Part shown: one piece after another, positions 4,102 to 63,425 of the stretch
How the letters are laid out: the number at the start of each line of letters is the position of its first letter
Numbering within the stretch: the stretch's first letter is position 1
Assembly: GCA_965216875.1 (NCBI GenBank)
Contig: OZ244207.1
Location: forward strand, 7,328,001 to 7,392,000
From: Rubripirellula sp.
GTDB taxonomy: Bacteria; Planctomycetota; Planctomycetia; Pirellulales; Pirellulaceae
Direction of reading: 5' to 3'
DNA length: 64,000 bases
Notes under the pieces: model-generated
The model's database searches: none
What the model saw: only the letters and a program-made list of their open reading frames with translations
What the model was told of the DNA's origin: nothing
Program-made: the position numbers and the translations under genes

Positions 4102-6000
4102 ATGTTTTCTACTCTTCGTCGCTGGGTGTCGAAACGGTGGTACCCGGCTTGGCTTTCCCTGCTCATCACGGGCGTGATCGCGTCGGTATTGATCAACACG
4201 ATGCTCGCGTCGCCGCTGACAACCGATTGGACCGCGTATCAGTGGGCCTGTGTTGGCATTTGGTTTGGTGCTGCGATTGCATGTGTGGCGACGGCGCTGG
4301 CCGCACTTTCGGCGTCACAGGTTTCGCCTGTGTTACGCTTTGCAAGTTTCTGGATCGTCATCGCAACCGGATTACTTACTGCCTTCGTGGTCGGAGTGGC
4401 GACGGATGCAACCTACAAGGCGGTGCTTGCGTTGCAAGGAAGGGCTGGATTGTGTGGCAGTTTTCTCTGCCTCGGCACATCACTCGCCGCAATCACCTTG
4501 ATGCCATGGGCTTCGAAACAAGTCCGCCGTTTCGCGCCGCCAAGGAGCCAAGCGGCCGGGGTCACCACGCCGTTGCTCGAGCTTCAATTGACCGCGATCA
4601 TGTTGCTTGCCACAGCTTGCTTTCTGATCTACGTGATTGAGTGGACCGAGGCCCATTCGCATGGTGCTTGTTTGCGCCTGGCTGTGTTCCATTTTTCGAT
4701 TGGTTTTGCGTCAACGTTTGGGGTTCGTTGGTTTCACGTCGATCGGACGTTGCGATGGCGCAGGTTGGTTGGAGTGATTGTCGTTGTGCCCGCAACGTAT
4801 CTGGTGGGCGATGCGATGTTTGATCCCAATGGCACGCAGGCGACGCCGATGGACACCTCCCACAATGTCGTCATGTCAATGGGCATCGTCGGATCGTGGG
4901 TGATGACATCGGCCGTGCTTGTTCGAACGCTTCAATGGTCCGGCTGGCGGTTCTCTCGTCGCCGTGTTGCCGTCCCGACGCTTGCTGACGGATCATTGAA
5001 CGAGTCGTTAATTGCGCGCCGCAAGAATCTTATCGCCCAATCCGGCTTGGTGGCGTTGACGGCATTGGTCGTTGCGATCGTCGGTCTCGGAGTCCCGCTT
5101 TACGTGCCAGCGATCGCTATCGAAGAGATCAAGCAAGACTGGCATTCCGGTTTCTATTACCCAGGCTATTCCTACAATGGTTGGGACACCGAGTTCAACC
5201 TGCTCTCGGCCTCGATTCGTACGTTTGCTGTGACGGGCGTGATCGGATTTGGATCGGCCCTCATCATCGTTGCAGTGCATCACCTGCGCGGTTTGGTATC
5301 TCAAACGCTGGTATCCCTTTCGATTATCTGCATCCCTTTGTCTTTGTTCAGCGTGACGCCAAAGAATCTGGAAGAGGGGCTAGGGATTTGCTTTGTGGTT
5401 GCCTTGCCAATCGTGATTGCAACGCGATTGATGCGTGGCATCGAGACTCATTGGACCAAATTCCGTGCTGGGGCGGTGTCAGTTGCAAAATGGCATGTCG
5501 ATATTCGCTCGATCATGTTGCTGACTTTGCTGGTCGGCATTGAGATCCAATTGCTGCGAACGATTGCGGATGCGTCGCTACTGCCAAAAGCGGCAATTGC
5601 GTTTGCGGTAGCTCTCTACTTTCACCTGATCGTTCTGCTTACCATCCGCCGGAGCATTGGCGGTAAGACCTGGCTCAACCTGTTCGGTTGGTGCATGTTG
5701 TGGTTGCTGCTTTTAGTCGGCTCGAACGTCAGCAGTTACCTTGACCAGGACGAGTCGTACTTCGAAGGCAACGTGCTGCTTCTAGCTTGCTTTGGCGGTT
5801 TCTGGGTTTCGATGACGGTCGCCATCCCGATTCTCGTTTTGTGTGGTTGGCATCGTCAGTCCTGCCGAGTCGGCTGGTCCGACCCGGCGCAGAAATCGTC
5901 CGATACATCGCTCGGTTCGCCAAGATCCGTGGGCGAAGCACCAACGAAGACGGTTGAAAAGCAACCGTCTTCGACTGAGTCGCCAACACAATGCGTCTAG
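4102..6000 (+). CDS. Polytopic integral membrane protein, unknown function
   Basis: 632-aa ORF with many hydrophobic helices; no recognisable catalytic motif. Confidence 0.7.
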   Translation: MFSTLRRWVSKRWYPAWLSLLITGVIASVLINTMLASPLTTDWTAYQWACVGIWFGAAIACVATALAALSASQVSPVLRFASFWIVIATGLLTAFVVGVATDATYKAVLALQGRAGLCGSFLCLGTSLAAITLMPWASKQVRRFAPPRSQAAGVTTPLLELQLTAIMLLATACFLIYVIEWTEAHSHGACLRLAVFHFSIGFASTFGVRWFHVDRTLRWRRLVGVIVVVPATYLVGDAMFDPNGTQATPMDTSHNVVMSMGIVGSWVMTSAVLVRTLQWSGWRFSRRRVAVPTLADGSLNESLIARRKNLIAQSGLVALTALVVAIVGLGVPLYVPAIAIEEIKQDWHSGFYYPGYSYNGWDTEFNLLSASIRTFAVTGVIGFGSALIIVAVHHLRGLVSQTLVSLSIICIPLSLFSVTPKNLEEGLGICFVVALPIVIATRLMRGIETHWTKFRAGAVSVAKWHVDIRSIMLLTLLVGIEIQLLRTIADASLLPKAAIAFAVALYFHLIVLLTIRRSIGGKTWLNLFGWCMLWLLLLVGSNVSSYLDQDESYFEGNVLLLACFGGFWVSMTVAIPILVLCGWHRQSCRVGWSDPAQKSSDTSLGSPRSVGEAPTKTVEKQPSSTESPTQCV

Positions 6001-49573: not shown

Positions 49574-49602
49574 TGCGTCTTTTCGGCTTCGGTCACGTCT
49601 AT
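49574..49602 (+). promoter_or_regulatory. Candidate ECF-type promoter upstream of the Cys-peptide/sigZ operon
   Basis: TGCGTC-16 nt-CGTCTAT; CGTC -10 core typical of ECF promoters; about 90 nt upstream of the peptide ATG. Confidence 0.4.
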
Positions 49603-49691
49603 GGGGTGAAGGGCCAACGAAGTGACTCTTTTCGGATCTTCCCCTTCTTCACGTTCCAAGCGAATTCCCATCCAAACGAGGAGACTAAATC

Positions 49692-49835
49692 ATGAGCGAT
49701 GACAAGAACCATGAAGCTGCAAAGACGAATCCCAACGAAACGGAGAAGTGCTGCACGCCGTGTTGTTGCTGCTGCTGTTGCTGTTCACAATGCAATGTTC
49801 AGCCGGCACGCACCGACGCTTCCTGTTGCGGGTAA
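49692..49835 (+). CDS. Cys-rich 47-aa peptide, metallothionein-like (not in ORF track)
   Basis: GAGGAG RBS 8 nt before ATG; MSDDKNHEAAKTNPNETEKCCTPCCCCCCCCSQCNVQPARTDASCCG*; stop overlaps the next ATG (TAATG). Confidence 0.75.
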   Translation: MSDDKNHEAAKTNPNETEKCCTPCCCCCCCCSQCNVQPARTDASCCG

Positions 49836-50422
49836 TGATGCGGATGCAATCTAACGACATGACCGAGCAAATCTGGCGTGAGCTGAATCAACGGCTGCGC
49901 CAGTTTGTGCGGTCGCGTGTCGATTCGGAATCGGATGTCGATGACATCTTGCAAACGGTTTTTCTGCGGATCCATACGCAGCTGGGCACTTTGCGCGATG
50001 CTGATCGGCTTGAGTCGTGGGTGTTTCAGATCGCCCGCAATGCTGTGGTGGACCACTATCGCGCGCATCGGCCAACTGAAAGTGAGGTTGATTCGATCAT
50101 CGAGCCTCGTAAAGACGACGATGTTGCCGGAGAACTCGCGGGTTGTCTGTCGGCGATGATTCAACGACTGCCGCAGGATCAGCGCCGTGCCGTATCGCTT
50201 TATGAACTCGAGGGGATTTCACAAAAAGAGATTGCTGCTCACGAATCGATTTCACTCTCCGGCGCCAAGTCGCGGATTCAGCGGGGCCGCAAGTCACTTG
50301 AAACGATGATGAAAGCTTGCTGTGAGTTTCAATTCGATGTTCGCGGGAAGGTCATCGACTACGGCGCTGCCGATTCGGATTGTTGCGAAGGGACGTGTGC
50401 CGTTCGTAGTACCGAGCTTTAG
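49835..50422 (+). CDS. sigZ: SigZ-like ECF sigma factor with Cys-rich C-terminal extension
   Basis: DDILQTVFLRIH, SWVFQIARN..DHYR, LAGCL, SLSGAKSRIQRGR, ACC...D.RG.VID, DCCEGTC; alternative starts at 49838-49859. Confidence 0.85.
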   Translation: MMRMQSNDMTEQIWRELNQRLRQFVRSRVDSESDVDDILQTVFLRIHTQLGTLRDADRLESWVFQIARNAVVDHYRAHRPTESEVDSIIEPRKDDDVAGELAGCLSAMIQRLPQDQRRAVSLYELEGISQKEIAAHESISLSGAKSRIQRGRKSLETMMKACCEFQFDVRGKVIDYGAADSDCCEGTCAVRSTEL

Positions 50423-50464
50423 CCGGTATCTGCTCACAAACCGCCTGAAGGCTGGACTACGAAC
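50402..50464. repeat. REP-like palindrome family B overlapping the sigZ 3' end
   Basis: gttcgtagtaccgagctttagccgg...ccgcctgaaggctggactacgaac. Confidence 0.8.
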
Positions 50465-50480
50465 CGCCTTGCCACGCTTC

Positions 50481-50556
50481 GTAGCTAGCTACGCTCGCCA
50501 GAGCGTGGTGGAAAGCGGTCTACCAATGAAAACCACCTTCTGGCGAAGGTAGCTAC
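50481..50556. repeat. GTAG-type REP doublet (family A), copy 3, inverted relative to copies 1-2
   Basis: tagctacgctcgccagagcgtgg...ccaccttctggcgaaggtagctac. Confidence 0.85.
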
Positions 50557-50569
50557 GGGCCGTGATGAT

Positions 50570-50651: not shown

Positions 50652-50986
50652 GGTGCTTGAGCGATTGCATGGATGGATCATGAGCCGAAACTCGTTCGCG
50701 TTCGCCGGCTGGACGCGTTTGGATCCCCCGATCGGAGGTGGTTGGGGTGGTTTGTGAGGAACTTTTGCTCAGTGGTTCCGGTCAAAAAGTGTCGCAGTCT
50801 GTCGTGGTTGGGCCCTATTCCTGGCAAAACCCTCATCTTCGGATCGGCGGTGTGTATTTTAGTAGCACCCTGTATCCACAGATGGATCAGGAAAAAGCGG
50901 CCATTTGACTGGATGTCTTGCACGTCGGCGAGGCTGCGCATCGAGGCCCCTCCCCACTTCTCCCACACCTCGGAATCGACCGCCCC

Positions 50987-53900
50987 ATGCGACTTCGCAA
51001 ATTGCTCTCCCGTTCGGAAGCGACCCGCCGCAAAACCAAACGTCGTCGGCGCGCGTTGGTTGAATCACTTGAGCGAAGAAACCTGTTAGCGACGTTTACC
51101 GTCGTCACCGGTGGTGATGCTGGTAATGGAGTTTGTAGCGCCGGCCAATGCACGCTTCGAGATGCCATCACGGCTGCCAACGCAACGGCGGGTGAAGACA
51201 CGATTCAATTCAGTCCCGCCGTGACTAACCCGATTGTGCTCGATGCAGCGCGCGGCGAGTTGTCGATCACGCAGCCGCTACAAATCTTCGGCAGCAGTAC
51301 GTCCAATACCGTTGTCAGTGCGGATGCAGCCGTCACGCCTTTTCGCGTGTTTGACATGACCGCTTCGGCAACCAACGTCACCATCGAAGGTTTGACGATC
51401 ACCGGCGGTCGAGCTCCGGACGATCCGGGCGGAGCGATTCAGTTTCAGTCCGAAGGCGTGCTCACGATTCGCGATAGCGTGATCACGGGGAACACCGCTG
51501 CAAATGGGGGTGGCATCTACAGCCTCTATGCCGGCAGTGTCGTCATCTCTGACAGTACGATTTCTGGGAACACCGCGCTGTATGGCGCCGGCGGCGGCGT
51601 CCAGGTTGTGGACGGTGACATCACGGTCAGCGCCAGCCTTGTTGATGGCAACATTGCGCTCGATTCCGGCGGTGGTCTGTTTGCCCAACATGGTGGCGAC
51701 ATCACCGTGACCGATTCTCAAATCTCCAACAACCGGACAACCTATTCGGGATACAACGGCGGTGGGATCAATAGCGGCGATGGCAATCTGACGATCACCG
51801 GCAGCACCATCACCGGGAACACTGCCGAGGGCGATGGCGGCGGTATCTACAACTACGGGGGCGCTGTCTCGATCAGCGGCAGCAACATCAGCGACAATGT
51901 CGCAGCGTATGCCGGCGGCGGGATCTTGAATGAGACGGGCGATGTCACGCTGAACCAATCAAACCTTTCTGACAACAACGCTTTGTATGGCGACGGCGGT
52001 GGTCTCTCTACCATTTCGGGTAACGTCACCATCACGCGTTCCAACATCTCGCAAAACCGAAGCGTCGATGCCGGCGGTGGTATCTCGACCAACTCGGGGC
52101 GGGTGGTCACGTTCGAGTCAACAATCTCTGGCAATACTACCGGCGAAGATGGTGGCGGTATCTCGAGCAGCACGGGCTTGGTCTCGCTCACCAACACAAC
52201 GCTTTCGGCAAACGTTTCCAATGCCGAAGGTGGCGGAATTCATTCGGCAAGCGGTCCTGTTCGATTGTTGCAATCGACGGTGACGCTCAATCAAGCAGCC
52301 GATGCGGGCGGCGGAATTGGTGTAACAGCGAACGATGACGGCGAAGCAATCTCGATCGTCAATTCCATTGTTGCTGGAAACACGGCAGGCCAGAATCCTG
52401 ACTTCACCGCACCAGGTAACCTGAGCAACCGCGAGGTGGTGTCGAGTCTGATCGGTGACAACAGCGGGACGTTTTTGCCCCCTTCGTCATTGGGGGCTGG
52501 CAGCGTTCCATTGCCTGATGCCCGCGGGAATCTTGTTGGCGGATCGCCACGTCCAGTCATCGATCCCATGCTTGGCCCACTCTCCTTCAACGGTGGCATC
52601 ACTCGAACGCATGTGCCGCTCGATGGCAGTTTGGCCATCGATGCTGGGGACAATTCGCTTGCCGTGAATCCTGGCGGCGATGGAGTCCCCGGGGGCGGTG
52701 ATGACGCGGCGATGACGAATGATCAACGAAGTTTTCCCTTCGTGCGTCTCGCCGATGGCGGATCGGGTTCCGTCACGGTCGACATGGGGGCTGTGGAAGT
52801 TCAGCAAGCTCCGATCTTTCTGGTGGACAACTTAAGCGATGTGGTTGACGGCGACCTTTCCGAAGGCAATCGAAGTCTTCGTGAAGTGATTGCGCTGACC
52901 AATGCGAGCCTCGGTGCTGACACGATTCAAATTGCGTCACACCTCTCAGGATCGATCTTGCTCGAGGCAAGCAACGGAACTCTCGAGATTACCGATTCGC
53001 TCTCGATCGAAGGTCCAGGGGCTGATCGGATCACGATCACGCCAGCCGTTGGCACGCAGTTGCGCTTGTTCAACGTGGATGCCGATGATTTCGCGATCTC
53101 AGGCGTGACGCTTGCACGCGGAACGGCTGCCACCGAGGGAGGTGCGATTCGTTTTGGTGGATCTGGAAAGCTAACGGTCAGCCACAGTGTTCTGCGCGAC
53201 AATCGGGCTGCACTTGGCGGTGGTATCTACAACGACAGCGGCGACGTCGAGATCATCGCCAGCACGTTGCACCGCAATGATGGGAATTCGCACGGTGGTG
53301 GTGTTGCCGCGCTGAGCGGAACGATTCTGGTTCATTCGTCGACGATCTCCAACAACGACTCAAGCGGCTTGGGCGCAGGGGTCTACAGCGTCAACGCTCA
53401 GGTTCAGATCTTGAATTCAACGATCACTGACAACGAGGCTGGCCTTGAAGGTGGAGGCGTTGGCTTGATTGACGATGACGGCGGCGAGACGTTGTCAATC
53501 GACAACTCAATCATCGCGGGCAATTCAGCACTCAACCATCCAGACTTCAACGCCCCAGGGAATCCAGCAAGCAACCTGCGCGTGCGATCGAGTTTGATTG
53601 GCGACAACGCAGGAACGACTCTCGCCGAATCCAACGAGAGCGGCGGAGTGCCTCAACCAACCGCTGATGGCAATCTGATTGGTGGCGTAACGGGCGGTGC
53701 AATTGATCCGCTTCTCGAGCCACTCGGCGACAATGGCGGCCCCACGCCAACACATGCACTCGGTGACGGTAGCCTTGCCATTGACAGCGGCGACGCCACG
53801 ATTCTTCCCGCCGACAGCGGTGACATCGACAACGATGGCGATCTGCTTGAAACCTTGCCGACCGATCAACGTGGTGCGGTACGCGTGGTTGATCAGCTTG

Positions 53901-56587
53901 ATATTGGTGCTTTCGAAATCCCGCCCGTTGCCACCATCACTTGGGACCAACCCGCTGACATTGTTTTTGGGACGTTGCTTAGCGACACTCAACTCAATGC
54001 GTCGGCGGATGGATCCGGAACGTTCGACTACACACCAGCGGCTGGCACGCAACTTTCCGTCGGCAATGGGCAAGTCTTGTCGGTGTCCTTCACGCCCGAC
54101 GATCCGCTAACGGTTCGCCCCTCGACGGCAACCACTCAAATCAATGTTCTCAAGGCCGACCCAGTTGTCACGTGGAATGATCCAGACGCGATCGACTTTG
54201 GAACGGCCCTGTCGGCCACGCAGCTCAACGCAATTGCGGACGTTGCGGGCACGTTCGTCTATGACCCTTCCTCGGGAACCGTTCTCGATGCAGGCACGGG
54301 GCAAACCCTTGCCGTCACGTTCACTCCGGACGACACCAGCAACTACAACGTCGTCAACGCGAGCGTGTCGATCGACGTCAATCGTGTTGACCCAGTGATC
54401 ACATGGGACGATCCGGCTGCGATCGATTTTGGAACGGCTCTTTCGGGCACGCAGCTCAACGCGATCGCAGACGTGGCTGGCACATTTGTCTATTCGCCCG
54501 TGAGCGGCACGATCCTAGACGCTGGGAATGCCCAGACACTGTCGACCACGTTCACGCCCGACGACACGACAAACTACAACACGGTGAGTGCCAACGTGTC
54601 GATTGATGTCAACAAGATCGACCCGATTGTGGCCTGGAGCCTTCCGAATCCGATCGTCTTTGGAACTGCGCTCAGTGCCACCCAGCTCAACGCGATCGCG
54701 GACGTCCCTGGTACGTTCGTTTATGATCCCGCCGCCGGAACCGTGCTCGACGCCGGAGATCAGCAAATCTCTGTCACGTTCACTCCAGATGACACAACGA
54801 ACTACAACACACGTGTTGCAACGACAACGATCACTGTCGAGAAAGCCGACCCGATTGTTACCTGGAACAACCCGGCCGATATCGCTTTTGGGACGCCTCT
54901 TGGCAATGAGCAATTGAATGCGATCGCGAACGTGCCTGGAACGTTCGTTTACAACCCTGCCGCCAGGACGATCTTGCCCGCGGGAACAGGGAACCAATTG
55001 GGCGCGACGTTTATCCCCGACGATTCGGGTAACTACAACAACGCGATCGCCTCGGTTCTCATCAACGTCGAAGCGGCGCTCGATTACGGCGATGCACCGA
55101 GCCAGTACCCTGTTCTGCTTTCGCAAGATGGTGCTCGTCACACGGTTGGGACGTTGCGATTGGGAAGTGACATTGACGCGGATGCTGATGGCCAACCGAG
55201 CGCCAATGCAGGGTTAGATTCGGGCGACGATGGCGTAACGCCCATTGCGGACGCGGTTGCCGACGTTGCGAGTTCGACCACGAGCAGTTTTCTCGTCACG
55301 AGTACGGGAGACGGGTTCGTCGATGCCTTTATCGATTTCAATGGCGACGGTGATTGGGGCGATGCAGGCGAACAGATTGCGACTAACTTTGCCGTTGTTG
55401 CTGGCGACAATCTGCTTAGCTACACCATTCCTGCTGGAGCAACACCGGGTGATACTGCGGCACGCTTCCGACTCAGTTCCGCTGGCAATTTGAGCCCTAC
55501 GGGCTTGGCTGCCGATGGCGAAGTCGAGGACTATGTGGTGACGCTGCTTGATGCGTCCGCCGCGGCTGACGTGACGATCAACCTTCCCGGGGCTCAGGGT
55601 GACGTTAGCTTTGACTCGGGACGAACCAGCGTCGGCGATGGTTCCGTCGTTCTCTTTGACGCGCCGACCGATTCGATCGGTCAAGCAACCGTTGTTGGTG
55701 GAAGTGGCGACAATCAAATCAATCTTGATCTCGGTGGTGACGGGGTTCCCGCATCCGGTTTGTCGATCGATGGCGGTGGTGGTGAAAATGGTGTCGCGAT
55801 CAGCGGACAAGCTGCTCTCGATACGACTGCAGACGGTAACGTTGACGCGGTCAATGTTCACGTGGTGGATATGGCGACATCTGATGATCTATCAAGCTTG
55901 GTGATCGACGCCGCCGCCGTCGCAGCGTTATCGCCCTCCAACAACACGATCAGCGTGCTGGGCGGAAACGGCGACGATATCGATTTCCAAGATGCTGAAG
56001 ATTGGGAAATGATCGATCCGGTGATTGAGGATTCGCTCTTCTACAACGTTGCATCGAATACCGAAACGGGCGAAATCGTTCGCATCAACGCTGCACGTCC
56101 ATGGCAAAACCCAATTGAACTGTCCGACGTCAACAACGACGGAAACGTGACAGCGAATGACGCGTTGCTGGTCATTAACGAACTGGGGCGACGCACGTTT
56201 TCGGACGATGAGACCGCTCAGCTTGACGATCCGCTCACGGTTGTTGTTTGGCCAGGTGTTTATTACGACCAGAGTGGGGACGGGCGCGCAACGGCACTCG
56301 ACGCACTTCGCGTGATCAATCGATTGGCTGTGATCTTCAACGGTGGTGCCGAATCGGTCCAAGGCATCGTGGGACGATTACCAGAAGCCGAATCGATTGC
56401 TGACGCCAATCCGCTCCAGGGCCCTGACGCGGCAATCCTGTTTAACGATCATGCCGTCGCTAGCTTTGAAGTGAATGATGAGCAGCACGGCATCGTTGAT
56501 GCGATTGCGATCGAGAGCCCGTCCCGGGTTTCCGCCGATTCCGTTGATGAAGTCTTTGGCAACCATCTCGACGCGCCCCTGTTCTAG
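50987..56587 (+). CDS. Giant surface protein: planctomycete N-motif, 2x CSLREA-like/beta-helix modules, 5 Ig-like repeats, GEVED, dockerin-like pair
   Basis: LVESLERRNLLA; CTLRDAI and RSLREVI; many GGGI/ISGN repeats; NGG.T.TH...SLAID.G; W..P..I.FGT.L...QLNA x5; DYGDAP...GEVEDY; DVNNDGNVTANDAL. Confidence 0.9.
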   Translation: MRLRKLLSRSEATRRKTKRRRRALVESLERRNLLATFTVVTGGDAGNGVCSAGQCTLRDAITAANATAGEDTIQFSPAVTNPIVLDAARGELSITQPLQIFGSSTSNTVVSADAAVTPFRVFDMTASATNVTIEGLTITGGRAPDDPGGAIQFQSEGVLTIRDSVITGNTAANGGGIYSLYAGSVVISDSTISGNTALYGAGGGVQVVDGDITVSASLVDGNIALDSGGGLFAQHGGDITVTDSQISNNRTTYSGYNGGGINSGDGNLTITGSTITGNTAEGDGGGIYNYGGAVSISGSNISDNVAAYAGGGILNETGDVTLNQSNLSDNNALYGDGGGLSTISGNVTITRSNISQNRSVDAGGGISTNSGRVVTFESTISGNTTGEDGGGISSSTGLVSLTNTTLSANVSNAEGGGIHSASGPVRLLQSTVTLNQAADAGGGIGVTANDDGEAISIVNSIVAGNTAGQNPDFTAPGNLSNREVVSSLIGDNSGTFLPPSSLGAGSVPLPDARGNLVGGSPRPVIDPMLGPLSFNGGITRTHVPLDGSLAIDAGDNSLAVNPGGDGVPGGGDDAAMTNDQRSFPFVRLADGGSGSVTVDMGAVEVQQAPIFLVDNLSDVVDGDLSEGNRSLREVIALTNASLGADTIQIASHLSGSILLEASNGTLEITDSLSIEGPGADRITITPAVGTQLRLFNVDADDFAISGVTLARGTAATEGGAIRFGGSGKLTVSHSVLRDNRAALGGGIYNDSGDVEIIASTLHRNDGNSHGGGVAALSGTILVHSSTISNNDSSGLGAGVYSVNAQVQILNSTITDNEAGLEGGGVGLIDDDGGETLSIDNSIIAGNSALNHPDFNAPGNPASNLRVRSSLIGDNAGTTLAESNESGGVPQPTADGNLIGGVTGGAIDPLLEPLGDNGGPTPTHALGDGSLAIDSGDATILPADSGDIDNDGDLLETLPTDQRGAVRVVDQLDIGAFEIPPVATITWDQPADIVFGTLLSDTQLNASADGSGTFDYTPAAGTQLSVGNGQVLSVSFTPDDPLTVRPSTATTQINVLKADPVVTWNDPDAIDFGTALSATQLNAIADVAGTFVYDPSSGTVLDAGTGQTLAVTFTPDDTSNYNVVNASVSIDVNRVDPVITWDDPAAIDFGTALSGTQLNAIADVAGTFVYSPVSGTILDAGNAQTLSTTFTPDDTTNYNTVSANVSIDVNKIDPIVAWSLPNPIVFGTALSATQLNAIADVPGTFVYDPAAGTVLDAGDQQISVTFTPDDTTNYNTRVATTTITVEKADPIVTWNNPADIAFGTPLGNEQLNAIANVPGTFVYNPAARTILPAGTGNQLGATFIPDDSGNYNNAIASVLINVEAALDYGDAPSQYPVLLSQDGARHTVGTLRLGSDIDADADGQPSANAGLDSGDDGVTPIADAVADVASSTTSSFLVTSTGDGFVDAFIDFNGDGDWGDAGEQIATNFAVVAGDNLLSYTIPAGATPGDTAARFRLSSAGNLSPTGLAADGEVEDYVVTLLDASAAADVTINLPGAQGDVSFDSGRTSVGDGSVVLFDAPTDSIGQATVVGGSGDNQINLDLGGDGVPASGLSIDGGGGENGVAISGQAALDTTADGNVDAVNVHVVDMATSDDLSSLVIDAAAVAALSPSNNTISVLGGNGDDIDFQDAEDWEMIDPVIEDSLFYNVASNTETGEIVRINAARPWQNPIELSDVNNDGNVTANDALLVINELGRRTFSDDETAQLDDPLTVVVWPGVYYDQSGDGRATALDALRVINRLAVIFNGGAESVQGIVGRLPEAESIADANPLQGPDAAILFNDHAVASFEVNDEQHGIVDAIAIESPSRVSADSVDEVFGNHLDAPLF
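53930..55072 (+). repeat. Five ~228-bp intragenic Ig-like domain repeats
   Basis: Repeated TW.DP..I.FGT.LS.TQLNA.A...GTF.Y.P..GT.L..G...L...FTPDD. Confidence 0.85.
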
Positions 56588-57587: not shown

Positions 57588-58037
57588 CCCACCAGCCTTT
57601 CCGAATACCCCAAGCCCATTCGCTCGCGCGATCAGCAGCTTAGAAACGATTCAAAACGAACGTAGACATAACGTCTAAATATCAGTGCTCGTCCAGCGTG
57701 CGTCAAGCAAATCAGCAGATCGGAGCCGGAACAAAACGGGGCGGATCGTTGTCGAAGCACGCGGCAGGCTCTACGCTCTGCGAGCCAAGCTCCCAGGCGG
57801 GGTGGTTGCTCGCTTGAATTTCGGATCCCTACAACCGTTCAAATCGTTGTATTTCGGCGCTCGGGATACGATTTGAAAGCGTGACAGGGCATCGCTACCC
57901 CTGCACGATCGGGGATGGCGAGCACCACAAAGGTCTCGGCAATTAGACTGGGGACGCCGAAACCCTGCCCAATCAGGTGGCAAATGCCGTTTGGCAGACC
58001 TCTCCTCACTTTTCCAGCTTCCATTTCGCAGCTTTTC

Positions 58038-61000
58038 ATGTCATCTCGCGCTAACAGAAAATCGGTTGCACGTCGAAACAAACTCCGTCAACGACGGCGA
58101 CGAATGAGGCTTGAATCGCTCGAAGATCGGCGGCTGTTGGCCGTCTCATTTGAGTTCAACTATATCGGTGGCAATGGGGTTGGATTCAATGATCCGGTTG
58201 AAGGGCCGGAGTTTCGATCGGCCCTTGAATCCGCTGCCTCACGACTGGGCGGATGGATGTTGCACGACGCGACGGTTCAGCTCGATGTGCATTCGTTCGA
58301 GTTCACCGGATCGGCTGTGGCGCATGCATCGTCGGCAATCCCACCATCGCCTGCGACCGGTGGTTTTCTTGACACGATCATCGGACAGAAGATCAAGGGA
58401 TTGAATGATGCCAACGGGGCAACTTCCGATGGCGAGATCGAGGTCTTTTTCTTTGACGGCAACGATCCATTCACCTATGTCACCGATCCGACCGAGGTCG
58501 ATGCAGACAATGAACTCGATTTCCAAGCGTTGGTGATTCACGAGCTTGCGCATTCGATCGGATTCACCAGCGCGACCAACGCCGACGGCACCGATGACGA
58601 TGGCAATGGCGTCGGCAGTCCAGGAACCTGGCGTCCCTATGACCGTTTCCTTTCTGACGTTGATGGCAATCGCTTGATCGATGCCGACCCCTTGTCGGCG
58701 ACTGCATTTCAGATGGATGCGACAGGTTGGTCACAGCACAGTGTTGGTGGCAAAGGGCCCGATGCCGGTTTGTTCTTTGACGGTCCCAAAGCGACCGCAG
58801 TGTACGGCGCCCGCGTACCCCTTTATTCACCCGCAGCATTCAGTTTGTCATCGAGTGTGAGTCATCTCGACAGCGAAGGCGCTCCTGACGATTCGATCTT
58901 TTCGCCGACCACGCACTTGATGTCGCACGCGACCATTGATCTCGCTGTTCCGCAAGAATTCACGCTTGTCGAAAAAGCGATTTTTGCGGACATCGGAATC
59001 AATCTGATCGAAGACACGCTGCCGGAAATCACGCCACCGCAAGACATCACCCTTGAAGGCAATACAAGCGGTGGGTTTTCAGGAACCAACGCGGCACTCA
59101 CCGCGTTTCTTGACGGCGCCATCGCGACAGACCTTTTTGATGACGATGTCACGATCACCAACGACGCGCCCAGCCTTTTTCCGCTAGGTCAAACGACGGT
59201 AGTGTTCACGGCGACCGATGATTCTGGCAATGAAGCGACCGCGACGGCGCGTGTGAGGGTGGTTGATACTGCCTCACCCGTCCTTTCGGTCACACCAACA
59301 GTAGCGACCCTCGAGGCGACAGGGCCTTTTGGTGTGCTGAACCCGACCCTGCCGTTTTCACCGACGGTGAGCGATGTTGTTGATGCCTCGCCATCCTTGG
59401 TGTTCAGTTCGCGATCGACGTACCCGCTGGGAACGACGGTCGTTACCTACACTGCCGAAGACAGTTCGGGAAACCAAGCGGCGTTTCCCGTGAGCGTCGT
59501 AGTCGAAGACACGACGCCACCCGACTTTAGCATGCCGTCGACGCTGACCATCCCCGGCAACGTGCCGGGTGGGGCCGACCTAAACAATTCCATTTTGGTG
59601 GATTTGTTCGATTCGCTTGCCAGTGACATCGTGGACCGTGATGTTGCGATCACGGCTTCACCAAGTACGTTCCCCGTTGGACAAACCAACGTCACCTTCA
59701 CAGCAACCGATGACTTTGGCAACTCGACCGACGTGGCTGTCGACTTGACCGTTTCGGGCATCACCTACACCGTGACCACGCTCGATGATGAACTTGACGC
59801 GGACCCCGGGTCGGCGCCTCAAGACTTGAGTCTTCGCGAAGCGATCTCGTTGGCCAACGCGACGGTCGGTAGCGACGAGATTCGCTTTGACCCGAGTTTG
59901 AACGGCACAGTGGTGCTCTCTTCGGCGCTGGGAGCGTTGCAGATCAACGATGGTGTTTCGATCATCGGCAATGGTCGCGATGACACGATCATCGACGGCA
60001 ACGACGAAGTGCGGGTCTTCGATGTTTCCCAGTCGGGCGGCAATGTCCAATTGCTCGGATTGACGATTACGGGTGGCTTGGCAACCGGCGAATTTGAATT
60101 CGGTGGTGGGATTCGATTCTTGTCTGGCGACACGTTGACCATCGAGTCGGCGACCTTTACCGATAACCACTCAATTGGACTCGGAGCGGCCGGGGGAGCA
60201 ATCTATGCCTTGGGTACAGTCGAAATCACCGATTCGATTCTCTCAGACAACTCAACCACTTCGTCGTTTGGCGGTGGCGGCGCCTTGTACCACGCTGGCG
60301 ATATCACCATCACGCGTTCCGTCGTGACTGGCAACCGAACCAATAACGAATTGGCTGCTGGTGGAGGTGCCTACATCAGCGAAGGCGAGGCGACGATCAT
60401 CCAAAGCACCTTCACGGATAATCAAACGGCGGGAGAACGTGCCGGTGGCGCTGGGCTAGTCGTGTTGAGGTCTACAGTGACCATTCGAGACTCGACGATC
60501 TCGGGCAACATGACCAGTGGGTCTGAGGCCGACGGTGCTGGCATCCAGTTAATCAATTCGCCAACCACGATTATCAATTCAACCATTTCGGGTAACACCG
60601 CAAGCGGTGAAGGAGGTGGTTTGTACATCGGTGGACGGCACGTATCGATCCACAACAGCACGGTCACTTCGAACGTTGCGGCCGAACGTGGTGGTGGGAT
60701 CACCACCTTTACCCAGGCAGGCGATGCTTCCTTTAGCCTGGACCATTCCATCGTTGCTGGAAACAGTGACGACGGGACGGCCCCTGATTTTTTGGGCACT
60801 CGGCTTGCCGCCGGAAATGATTCGGTCATCTACAGCCTTGTCGGTGACAACACGGGAACGACTCTCGGAGAATCGCAAACGGCGCACCCAACGACAGGCA
60901 GTCTGATCGGCGATCCCAATGGCGGCGGGCTGATTGACCCGCAACTGAGTGCGCTGGCCGACAATGGTGGACCAACTCAAACCCATTTGCCACTTCAATC

Positions 61001-63425
61001 GAGTCCCGTTCTCGATGCTGGTGACCCTCAGTTCAATCGCTCGATCTTCACGCCACCGTTGGACAACGACCAACGCGGTGTGAACTTTCCGCGAATCGCA
61101 GGTGGCAACATCGACATTGGTTCCGTTGAACGTCCCACCGGGGTGACGATCAACTGGGCCGACCCAGCGCCGATCGTCTTTGGCACCGCACTCAGCGCGA
61201 CCCAGCTCAATGCCACCGCTGACGTGACGGGCACGTTTGTCTACACGCCAGCGCTCGGCACGATCCTAAACGCTGGTGACGATCAGCAACTTTCGGTTGA
61301 GTTCACGCCCGATGATCTCGTCAATTTTGAAGTGACGACCGCAACCGTCTTTATCGACGTGCTGCGAGAAGACCCCGTCATTACGTGGGACACTCCGGAT
61401 CCGATCGATTTCGGAACCCCGCTTAGCGCGACCCAGCTCGATGCATCGGCCGATGTGCCCGGTACGTTCAGCTACACGCCTGATCTCGGCGCGATCCTTG
61501 CGTCCGGCGATGGGCGCGTGCTCTCGACGACCTTTACCCCGGTCGACACCACGAACTTCAATGTCGTTTCGACTTCGGTCTTTATCGATGTGCTCAAGGG
61601 TGTGCCCGTTGTGACGTGGGCCGACCCCGACCCCATCGTGTTTGGTACAGCGCTTAGCAGCACGCAACTCAACGCAACCGCCGACGTTGACGGTACGTTC
61701 AGCTACATTCCGCCGGCCGGGATTTTTATGTTGCCGGGGAACAACCAAACACTCTCGGTGACCTTCACACCCACGGATGCAACGAACTTTGAAAGTGTGA
61801 CCGAAACCGTTCAGATTGATGTGCTCAAAGCGGATCCAGTCATCACCTGGAATGATCCCGCTGACATCATCGTTGGCACTGCCCTGGGAACGGAGCAACT
61901 GAATGCCGAAGCGTCGGTCAGCGGCACTTTCGAATACGACCCTAATCTCGGAACGGTCTTGTCGGTCGGTGATGGTCAAACACTTTCGGTCACCTTCACC
62001 CCCGACCTCACGAGCCGATTCAATGTCGTGCAAGCGACCGTGTCGATCAACGTTTTGGCTCCGCAAGACTACGGCGACGCACCTGACGCGTACCCGGTAA
62101 CACTCGCCGAAGACGGCGCGCGACACACCACGACTTCATTGCGACTGGGCGATGTCGTTAGCAACGATTTTGATGGAACGCCTTCGGCTGCGGCCGACTC
62201 CGATGATGACGACGGCATCACCTTCTTGGCGAGCTTGGTTTCCGATGGCGGGTCGGTGACCACATCGAGCCTATCGGCCGACGTTTCTGAAACCGGCAAG
62301 CTAGATGGTTGGATCGACTTCAACCAGGACGGTGACTGGGACGATGCCGGCGAGCAAATCTTGTCGAGTGTTGACGTTGCCGCGGGAGGCAACACACTCT
62401 CGTTCACCATTCCCGCCGGAGCGTCGATTGGCGATACCGCTGCCCGCTTGCGACTTAGCTCGGCCGGAGGATTGTTGCCAACCGGCGCAGCAGCCGACGG
62501 TGAGGTCGAAGACTACATTGTTACCATCCTTGATGGCTCACAGGCTCCCGATGTTCTGGTCACGCTTCTGAACGCATCGGTTGCGATCGATTCCGAAGGC
62601 AACGACGTTGTTGTTGAAAGCGGTGGCGTCGAACTCTTCGCCGCGCCGCAAGCAAGCGTCGGAGCCCTGAGTGTTACGGGGACGGCTGAGGACGACACCG
62701 TTGACCTGCATGCCGCGGGCGGCACGTTGCCAGCGGGTGGACTCAGTCTTGATGGGAATGGTGGCGATGACACGCTTCGATTGATCGGCAACGCAGGTGT
62801 CTTCGACCTGACCGATCCCAATATCCAAATTGACCGTTTCAACACGCTCGACCTGTCTTCATCGGATGCTGTCACGCTTGTCGTTGACGCAGCAGCGATC
62901 GCTCGTTTGTCGCCGATCACCCGTTCGGTCTTTATCGCCGCCGGCGAAGAAGACGTGTTCGATTTTGAAGATGTCGACAGCTGGCTGTTGACCGACCCCG
63001 CTCAGATCAATGACCGCTTCATTCAGACCGCAACCAACAGCGACACGGGAGAAATTGTCCAGGTCGAACAGCCCGATCATTGGCGAAACTTCCTTCGCGC
63101 TGGCGACGTCAACAACGATGGTGCTGTGACCGCGCGTGACGCGCTTCGGATTATCAACGAGCTGGGACGCCGCAATTTCTCGGATGACGAGACTCAAACC
63201 TTGGTCGATGCTGCCACGCTCACCCCGTGGCCGGATGTCTACTTTGATCACAACGGCGACGGACGCGTTTCCGCGCTCGATGCGCTTCGCGTGATCAACG
63301 AATTGGCTCGTATCTCAAACGTCGTTGATGGCGAATTGGTTGTCTCACTTGAAGACGAAGCCGTGGGGCGGACCAACGTGGATACGTTACTTGCCGATGA
63401 TGATTTCCTCGGGTCGCTCTTCTAG
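58038..63425 (+). CDS. Giant surface protein: planctomycete N-motif, Zn metalloprotease, ~3 HYR-like domains, beta-helix module, 4 Ig-like repeats, GEVED, dockerin-like pair
   Basis: LESLEDRRLLA; IHELAHSIGF...SHLD...HLMS; (F/Y)P.G.T.V..TA.D..GN x3; LSLREAI; NGGPTQTH; DYGDAP...GEVEDY; GDVNNDGAVTARDAL. Confidence 0.9.
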   Translation: MSSRANRKSVARRNKLRQRRRRMRLESLEDRRLLAVSFEFNYIGGNGVGFNDPVEGPEFRSALESAASRLGGWMLHDATVQLDVHSFEFTGSAVAHASSAIPPSPATGGFLDTIIGQKIKGLNDANGATSDGEIEVFFFDGNDPFTYVTDPTEVDADNELDFQALVIHELAHSIGFTSATNADGTDDDGNGVGSPGTWRPYDRFLSDVDGNRLIDADPLSATAFQMDATGWSQHSVGGKGPDAGLFFDGPKATAVYGARVPLYSPAAFSLSSSVSHLDSEGAPDDSIFSPTTHLMSHATIDLAVPQEFTLVEKAIFADIGINLIEDTLPEITPPQDITLEGNTSGGFSGTNAALTAFLDGAIATDLFDDDVTITNDAPSLFPLGQTTVVFTATDDSGNEATATARVRVVDTASPVLSVTPTVATLEATGPFGVLNPTLPFSPTVSDVVDASPSLVFSSRSTYPLGTTVVTYTAEDSSGNQAAFPVSVVVEDTTPPDFSMPSTLTIPGNVPGGADLNNSILVDLFDSLASDIVDRDVAITASPSTFPVGQTNVTFTATDDFGNSTDVAVDLTVSGITYTVTTLDDELDADPGSAPQDLSLREAISLANATVGSDEIRFDPSLNGTVVLSSALGALQINDGVSIIGNGRDDTIIDGNDEVRVFDVSQSGGNVQLLGLTITGGLATGEFEFGGGIRFLSGDTLTIESATFTDNHSIGLGAAGGAIYALGTVEITDSILSDNSTTSSFGGGGALYHAGDITITRSVVTGNRTNNELAAGGGAYISEGEATIIQSTFTDNQTAGERAGGAGLVVLRSTVTIRDSTISGNMTSGSEADGAGIQLINSPTTIINSTISGNTASGEGGGLYIGGRHVSIHNSTVTSNVAAERGGGITTFTQAGDASFSLDHSIVAGNSDDGTAPDFLGTRLAAGNDSVIYSLVGDNTGTTLGESQTAHPTTGSLIGDPNGGGLIDPQLSALADNGGPTQTHLPLQSSPVLDAGDPQFNRSIFTPPLDNDQRGVNFPRIAGGNIDIGSVERPTGVTINWADPAPIVFGTALSATQLNATADVTGTFVYTPALGTILNAGDDQQLSVEFTPDDLVNFEVTTATVFIDVLREDPVITWDTPDPIDFGTPLSATQLDASADVPGTFSYTPDLGAILASGDGRVLSTTFTPVDTTNFNVVSTSVFIDVLKGVPVVTWADPDPIVFGTALSSTQLNATADVDGTFSYIPPAGIFMLPGNNQTLSVTFTPTDATNFESVTETVQIDVLKADPVITWNDPADIIVGTALGTEQLNAEASVSGTFEYDPNLGTVLSVGDGQTLSVTFTPDLTSRFNVVQATVSINVLAPQDYGDAPDAYPVTLAEDGARHTTTSLRLGDVVSNDFDGTPSAAADSDDDDGITFLASLVSDGGSVTTSSLSADVSETGKLDGWIDFNQDGDWDDAGEQILSSVDVAAGGNTLSFTIPAGASIGDTAARLRLSSAGGLLPTGAAADGEVEDYIVTILDGSQAPDVLVTLLNASVAIDSEGNDVVVESGGVELFAAPQASVGALSVTGTAEDDTVDLHAAGGTLPAGGLSLDGNGGDDTLRLIGNAGVFDLTDPNIQIDRFNTLDLSSSDAVTLVVDAAAIARLSPITRSVFIAAGEEDVFDFEDVDSWLLTDPAQINDRFIQTATNSDTGEIVQVEQPDHWRNFLRAGDVNNDGAVTARDALRIINELGRRNFSDDETQTLVDAATLTPWPDVYFDHNGDGRVSALDALRVINELARISNVVDGELVVSLEDEAVGRTNVDTLLADDDFLGSLF
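61140..62057 (+). repeat. Four ~228-bp intragenic Ig-like domain repeats
   Basis: Same consensus as 53930-55072. Confidence 0.85.

Follow-up and report, generated by a model that had tools for sequence, protein, structure and literature searches.

What does a cysteine-packed open reading frame of 47 codons do immediately in front of the gene for an ECF sigma factor? The question is raised by a 64,000-nt stretch of the genome of the planctomycete Rubripirellula sp. (GCA_965216875.1, contig OZ244207.1, positions 7,328,001 to 7,392,000; hereafter the window). In the original prediction, the pair had been described as a hidden micropeptide coupled to a sigma factor, together forming an autoregulated metal-sensing and metal-sequestering module. 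The features on which an answer depends are the following:

49575-49601, + strand: predicted SigZ-type promoter, with the -35 element GCGTC(TTTT) at 49575, a 16-nt spacer and the -10 element CGTC(TA) at 49596
49678-49683, + strand: Shine-Dalgarno (SD) sequence GAGGAG of the small ORF, 8 nt 5' of its ATG
49692-49835, + strand: Cys-rich small ORF of 47 aa, with 13 Cys (28%) and 0 aromatic residues
49761-49784, + strand: run of 8 Cys codons within the small ORF, 4 TGT and 4 TGC
49833-49837, + strand: TAATG stop/start overlap, with the TAA at 49833-49835 and the sigma ATG at 49835-49837
49835-50422, + strand: ECF sigma factor SigZ of 195 aa

The first step is to establish whether the small ORF is a gene. 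Re-reading of the sequence gave the same 47 codons, 13 Cys with eight of them consecutive, and GAGGAG at 8-nt spacing that had been claimed. The peptide has a polar N-terminus, a CC-xx-C8-xx-C core and a CC at its C-terminal end, and thus five further Cys outside the run. The mixture of TGT and TGC codons, which had been taken as a sign of selection on the protein, is real, but alone it is weak evidence for such selection, because the shifted frame reads YTG, and hence Leu, either way. Two more mixed TGY runs, of 7 and 11 codons, occur in the genome at 8083568 (+) and 3864095 (-), neither in such a small ORF; both probably lie antisense to Gln-rich tracts. The 8.26-Mb genome has six ATG ORFs of 20-90 aa that follow an SD and have a Cys content of 20% or more, and the one in the window is the sole one above 45 aa. 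Of the 20 ECF-like loci of the genome, 3, among them the window locus, are preceded by a small ORF in which Cys makes up 15% or more, and the ORFs at the other two are of 24 aa and are not preceded by the promoter motif.

Database searches contributed little to its identity. The peptide had no match in Pfam or NCBIfam, and 22 related peptides gave no metallothionein family match in Pfam (0/23 with that of the window). AlphaFold returned no confident fold (pLDDT 51, pTM 0.15). A profile search from the peptide alignment, a method uninformative for low-complexity sequence, listed 310 candidates, none with E ≤0.001, and in the ESM Atlas two unnamed 50-aa clusters were similar at 0.75-0.76, which are leads only. 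When nine peptides, including that of the window, were looked up exactly among about 15 billion proteins, none was present.

The same codons can be read in another frame. In the ORF list, the sigma starts earlier, from a GTG at 49748, by way of a poly-Leu reading of the run, as the original prediction had pointed out. Its further claim that this hides the peptide from gene callers holds for the peptide, which is absent from the protein collection, but not for the sigma, whose 195-aa form there is correct and whose 224-aa form is absent. The N-termini of homologs align with 49835, which led to the rejection of a start at 49748 and of the poly-Leu extension. An LLLL N-terminal extension is carried by 25 of the 120 listed sigma homologs, and these extensions are likely the same mis-called start. 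That the real product is this extension after all, or that the small ORF encodes a RiPP precursor, is hardly credible: the polar leader with its Cys-rich core and a Leu frame open into sigma at 9 of 15 loci would suit such products, but the Leu frame is closed or shifted at the other 6, the Cys frame is intact in 15/15, and it is the Cys frame that the SD and ATG serve. As for a RiPP, which had already been judged the less likely option, YcaO is absent from the genome, the window holds no CxxxCxxC ORF of at least 250 aa, and the 15 longer loci listed and compared have no conserved neighbour of the sigma besides the peptide.

The strongest argument for a gene comes from relatives. A scan upstream of sigZ orthologs, as the original prediction had proposed, revealed a peptide of 41-53 aa with 12-16 Cys directly 5' of the sigma at all 12 other loci with a sigma of ≥55% identity (L004, L005, L011, L016-L020, L037, L038, L162 and L163), and the same pattern recurs at four loci with sigmas 46-48% identical (L145, L147-L149). 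Further variants comprise six CC-repeat peptides, four from Phycisphaeraceae-titled records and one Lys-rich peptide, and the peptides of relatives, too, have SD-like words before their start. Among 15 aligned peptides, Cys accounts for 22-31% of residues, aromatic residues number 0-2 and a terminal CC is found in 13, and the longest Cys run ranges from 3 to 9. Mean column identity is 38%, the non-Cys positions being variable. It appears, from these alignments, that the composition of the peptide rather than its sequence has been maintained. In a strain from another study, the motif, SD, ORF and overlap are all kept, with 23 differences in 949 nt, and its small ORF shows 7 differences in 5 codons, residue-changing or silent, none of them in a Cys codon; this comparison relies on the one of four sequencing runs (X5) that covers the cassette, with 49755-49791 skipped as a repeat. 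Taken as a whole, the small ORF looks like a real, conserved and usually uncalled Cys-rich gene, whose translation is predicted.

The distribution of SigZ itself is patchy, with 22 of 400 genomes of the family, 14 of 400 of the order, 8 of 300 of the class and 16 of 400 of the phylum, and it was not found in two congeners (84% and 97% complete). At L011 the sigma frame stops at about 70 residues, with the peptide and motif intact. L004, from a contig that bears the title uncultured Acaryochloris, is a poly-Cys cassette with 10 of 12 Cys codons TGT and SulP/UspA-like neighbours, and represents either cross-phylum transfer or mis-binning. L012 has a sigma of 28% identity that is preceded by a 50-aa ORF, CxC-rich and metallothionein-like, and by no SigZ motif.

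The second step concerns the sigma factor. It passes both NCBIfam cut-offs for SigZ, with 193 bits for TIGR02959 (168.65) and 214.9 for NF007215 (212), and the Cys tail that had been claimed is there as KACC...DCCEGTC. C104, C162 and C163 are invariant in 50/50 aligned homologs, and C183, C184 and C188 are present in 37, 34 and 43 of them, respectively. A structure model contains the helices of sigma2 and sigma4 and, after C162-C163, a beta-hairpin; its Cys tail is of low confidence. The description as SigZ/CorE-like stands in its first half, the factor being SigZ (former ECF24) by both cut-offs, but not in its second: no CxC lies between sigma2 and sigma4 in any of the 120 listed homologs, the window sigma has a single Cys there (C104), and CorE-type membership was ruled out for lack of that linker. 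The C-terminal extension formed by C162, C163, C183, C184 and C188 is short and Cys-rich, as in ECF238, to which we infer that the sigma belongs from the placement of SigZ in that group (PMC7826278). Two observations concern the surrounding DNA. A palindrome-like repeat at 50400-50565, with 442 blastn matches in the genome, overlaps the 3' end of the sigma gene, and AVRSTEL, the residues past its last Cys, derives from it. Downstream, 50918-56587 and 57915-63425 are repeat-rich ORFs of 1889 and 1836 aa that resemble each other in their C-terminal parts; they are unrelated to the cassette and look like typical planctomycete surface proteins.

SigZ factors (TIGR02959; former ECF24, now ECF238) have C-terminal cysteines, as does the window sigma, and no anti-sigma gene alongside; at the cassette, the peptide gene is the one conserved neighbour, and its product could be an anti-sigma. 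In the available text of the 2021 classification, ECF238 is described as having promoters that are not conserved, no autoregulation and little context conservation, and the activation signal of SigZ is called a "long-standing enigma"; the string "arsen" occurs 0 times in the ECF238 supplementary text at hand (PMC7826278). The cassette differs from that description by a conserved motif, likely autoregulation, an arsenic-gene context and a coupled peptide. In B. subtilis, the function of SigZ is listed as undetermined, yrpG is its suggested target, and SigZ reportedly does not direct its own transcription (PMC4105308). A SigZ-like motif near 4953 (-) of L190 (NZ_CP137803.1), a Priestia megaterium plasmid, is aimed at a divergent aldo/keto reductase. 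The product of yrpG is presumably an aldo/keto reductase as well.

The closest functional model is found in CorE and CorE2 of Myxococcus xanthus (former ECF44), which are ECF sigmas with a short Cys-rich tail like that of SigZ, have no anti-sigma, and serve as a model of direct ion activation (PMC8999054, PMC4937300). They differ from the window sigma in their Cys spacing, in their signals (Cu and Cd/Zn) and in the CxC linker, described there as defining and essential in CorE-type factors; the word "metallothionein" is absent from the main text of the CorE2 paper (PMC4937300). By analogy, the window sigma may work like CorE.

The third step is the arrangement of the two genes. The TAATG overlap is as had been claimed, and in 11/11 usable loci the stop-to-start gap lies between -4 and +3 and the sigma is not preceded by an SD-like word, a count that omits four loci at which the script had picked an upstream GTG. 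Since the sigma start has no SD-like word of its own, translational coupling of peptide and sigZ, as originally proposed, is probable. Neither a terminator between the peptide gene and sigZ nor a sigma-70-type promoter at the locus was found, and an Rfam scan gave a single match at chance level. Coupling raises the possibility that the ORF is a functionless remnant which merely brings ribosomes to an SD-less sigZ. Enzyme remnants are indeed known in this slot, but coupling requires no Cys, and yet every one of the 15 diverged peptides has kept 22-31%, which makes this very improbable.

The main rival to a sequestering peptide, which the original prediction did not raise, deserves more weight. 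The ORF could be mainly a cis-acting, sensing uORF, in which a pause on the Cys run, caused by scarce Cys-tRNA or by ion-bound nascent thiols, sets the level of sigma. The parallel is the mycobacterial attenuator Ms5788A, likewise an unannotated first ORF of an operon with eight consecutive Cys codons (10.1101/834739), and metal-sensing uORFs such as CruR exist (PMC9426467). The tight coupling at 11/11 usable loci fits such a role, the Cys tails of ArsI and DUF2703 proteins likewise end shortly before sigZ, and the 24-aa Lys-rich peptide of L096 (488-559), with 7 consecutive Cys and an overlap with the sigma start, comes closest to an attenuator among the variants; L064 carries that frame but no in-frame ATG. 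Unlike Ms5788A, however, the window ORF is SD-led rather than leaderless, has five Cys beyond the run, precedes a sigma rather than cysteine metabolism, and has a tract that is not predicted to pair with the start further on, a pairing that is said to be shown solely for Ms5788A (10.1101/834739). Here the tract has 0.10 expected base pairs with the sigma start, versus 1.24 in synonymous controls, and 0/12 usable loci exceed all 30 controls (4 of the 16 rows are left out, namely L147-L149 for start offsets and L096 because the test window overlaps its own run). The missing terminator, a run length that varies from 2 to 9 at a steadily high Cys content, a gap of 70-85 nt at four loci, the peptides found 3' of sigZ, the lack of cysteine or sulfur genes recognised behind the motif and the lack of a RAPP arrest motif all speak against it, and a mainly cis-acting role is considered unlikely. 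As coupling would make sigma output depend on Cys-tRNA, both such a role and the sequestering one discussed below could hold.

The fourth step asks what switches the pair on. Upstream lies a motif, overlooked in the original prediction, with the consensus GCGTCYTTTT...CGTCT, in which 16 nt separate GCGTC and CGTC. Across 119 distinct SigZ loci (537 kb), 86 copies lie on the sigma strand and 2 on the opposite one, against 0-1 in shuffles and a genome background of about 1 per Mb per strand; these loci are mutually related, and their metagenome part consists of the best 80 out of 469. In 82 of the 119 the motif stands before the first gene, and 37 have no motif in the DNA examined. Because the pattern was originally read off a few of these same loci, the weight is carried by the strand control and by a genome-wide matrix test. 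The matrix, trained on 44 sites before ArsM, ArsI and DUF2703 genes only, ranks the window site first in the 8.26-Mb genome with 29.1 bits, followed by 18.0 for the next site and 16-23 for the best column-shuffled scores; no second site exceeds the controls. In each of five relatives with a peptide, the sole match in the 21-nt register is the peptide's own site. With one outstanding site, the peptide is probably the only target of SigZ besides itself, and weaker targets may exist. Positions 49575-49601 are a predicted SigZ promoter, and the autoregulated two-gene operon of the original prediction is likely, its motif lying upstream of the pair and being the top site genome-wide.

The identity of the genes behind the motif points to a signal. 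The 119 loci contain 85 distinct motif-led ORFs, which comprise 26 ArsM and 15 ArsI/CadI proteins above cut-off (a family that takes in cadmium-induced proteins as well), 5 DUF2703 and 2 ArsP_1 proteins, 2 look-alikes outside the Pfam scan, 27 peptides rich in Cys and 8 others. None of them was recognised as belonging to cysteine or sulfur metabolism. The substrates of ArsM and ArsI are As(III) and methylarsenite (PMC6138428). One of the motif-led ORFs, at 4633-4692 of L048, ends in YCVE with a stop after 20 codons. It resembles the start of a SelW/Rdx-type selenoprotein.

Since the peptide is conserved before SigZ, behind a motif that in relatives precedes arsenic-detoxifying genes, the pair is likely a self-contained alarm with its sponge, directed at arsenic or at similar metals that bind thiols. 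The best explanation, with a probability somewhat better than even, is that SigZ, under its own control, produces a thiol sponge of metallothionein-like kind, whose ligand is probably trivalent arsenic or a similar ion; the larger part of that probability falls on arsenic, which as the specific ion is rated a little short of an even chance. A toxic ion, most likely As(III) or methylarsenite, would bind the SigZ cysteines and activate the factor without an anti-sigma, as modelled for CorE and CorE2. Active SigZ would then transcribe the peptide gene and sigZ from the motif, and ribosomes ending the peptide would re-initiate at sigZ, giving positive feedback. The 13 thiols of the peptide would chelate the ion, protect the cell and deprive the sigma of its ligand, giving negative feedback; the tuning of the sigma by the peptide that was first proposed is conjectural. 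The claim of a metal(loid)-sequestering peptide therefore remains the best guess from composition and context, but on comparative evidence arsenic is placed ahead of the Cu, Cd and Zn first named.

Bacterial metallothioneins such as SmtA/BmtA and MymT are small, with about 30% Cys and almost no aromatic residues, have no predicted fold in the metal-free state and often go uncalled. With 47 aa, 28% Cys and 0 aromatics, the peptide has the same operational traits, and it resembles them in its missing predicted fold. It differs in having no family match, in Cys arranged in runs and CC pairs and in a context that points to arsenic. SmtA/BmtA and MymT are controlled by an SmtB- or RicR-type repressor, whereas an activating sigma is predicted here. 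The peptide is metallothionein-like by composition only. Several findings weigh against the preferred explanation. The 8-Cys run departs from the CxC/CxxC spacing known in classical metallothioneins and is as long as that of Ms5788A. No arsenic gene lies near the cassette in the window, and a genome search gave no ArsI/CadI and no Acr3 match. The arsenic link is an association via sigmas 35-50% identical. At about 5214600-5216900 of the genome (L160), an arsS radical SAM gene above cut-off stands before the gene of an ArsM-like methyltransferase whose tail carries CC, which suggests an arsenosugar-type pair; it is not among the top motif sites of the genome. In the literature searched, with subscription journals mostly out of reach, no description was found of this module, of SigZ with arsenic, or of a metallothionein in Planctomycetes with an ECF sigma.

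Whether the product acts in trans can be judged from other placements of the gene. Cys-rich peptides are also encoded downstream of sigZ with a motif of their own (L053, L066 and L173), and two behind the motif, in L066 (992-1132) and L167, have a hydrophobic, signal-like N-terminus and are possibly exported binders. Such peptides under their own motif and such N-termini favour a product acting in trans. A product made 1:1 with SigZ through coupling could also be its direct partner, acting as a small anti-sigma or as a chaperone by which the Cys tail of the sigma is given the ion or relieved of it. The conserved terminal CC, the coupled synthesis and a cassette that travels as a pair agree with this, but most SigZ loci carry an enzyme gene and not a peptide in the slot, the peptide varies at its non-Cys positions, and ECF238 is described as without anti-sigmas (PMC7826278), which leaves a direct partner quite improbable.

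The flanks differ at each of the longer loci listed, related Phycisphaeraceae records excepted, so the cassette seems to be a small portable unit: motif, SD, peptide gene and the SD-less, overlapping sigZ are conserved together over about 0.85 kb amid unrelated flanks. Two CC-repeat peptide cassettes adjoin arsA, one of them also arsD. At four annotated plasmid loci that were examined, an ars operon lies beside one, a convergent 58-aa Cys-rich peptide at another, a divergent aldo/keto reductase at the third, and a VOC protein with a glutathione S-transferase at the last. Upstream of sigZ at L039, a 97-aa ferredoxin with a C-terminal CC is encoded, which presumably resembles HgcB of mercury methylation.

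As for the origin of the peptides, enzyme remnants occupy the same slot:

L026 2082-2291, - strand, and also L199 and L198: ArsI/CadI remnants as first gene of a SigZ operon, with no catalytic VOC core and with the Cys-rich tail retained

At L026 and L199, the catalytic core of ArsI is lost and the Cys tail kept (blastp of the tails, E 1e-13 to 4e-4); these remnants are known as assembled sequence, in which an assembly error is possible. As read, they show one route to such peptides. ArsI/CadI and DUF2703 tails share with the peptides the CC pairs, the operon slot and the motif, and a GGCTGA...TCAGCC-type hairpin is common to ArsI-led and CC-repeat-led leaders. In single-sequence folds, a small hairpin was seen in the 5' leader at many loci, with no larger common structure apparent. 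Quick sigma trees place 14 poly-Cys loci on one side of a branch (SH-aLRT 93-94) and the CC-repeat peptides inside an ArsI-led group (98), with other peptide types elsewhere; a single clade of poly-Cys and CC-repeat loci was rejected (AU p 0.002), the groups having been named after the first tree. Descent of the CC-repeat peptides from an ArsI/DUF2703-type tail is plausible. Tail descent is supported for the ArsI remnants; for the poly-Cys clade of the window it would be one possible origin. A wider proposal remains doubtful: SigZ factors would be dedicated sensors of trivalent (organo)arsenic acting through GCGTC-N16-CGTC, the cassette would be their smallest, mobile form, its peptides would recur partly by deletion of the ArsI core, and the Cys run would gate sigma translation by cysteine.

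The cassette combines known kinds, SigZ and a metallothionein-like peptide, and its function is one that we infer from comparison. Together with the ArsM/ArsI/ArsP context, the motif makes the signal of SigZ directly testable with arsenicals. If the peptide binds arsenic, a metallothionein-like family would have been overlooked by gene callers, the same family would be a source of false poly-Leu N-termini on many SigZ records, and a two-gene sensor-and-sink circuit usable for biosensing would be at hand. If the reading of the pair as alarm and sponge is true, the poorly understood SigZ family would gain a testable signal.
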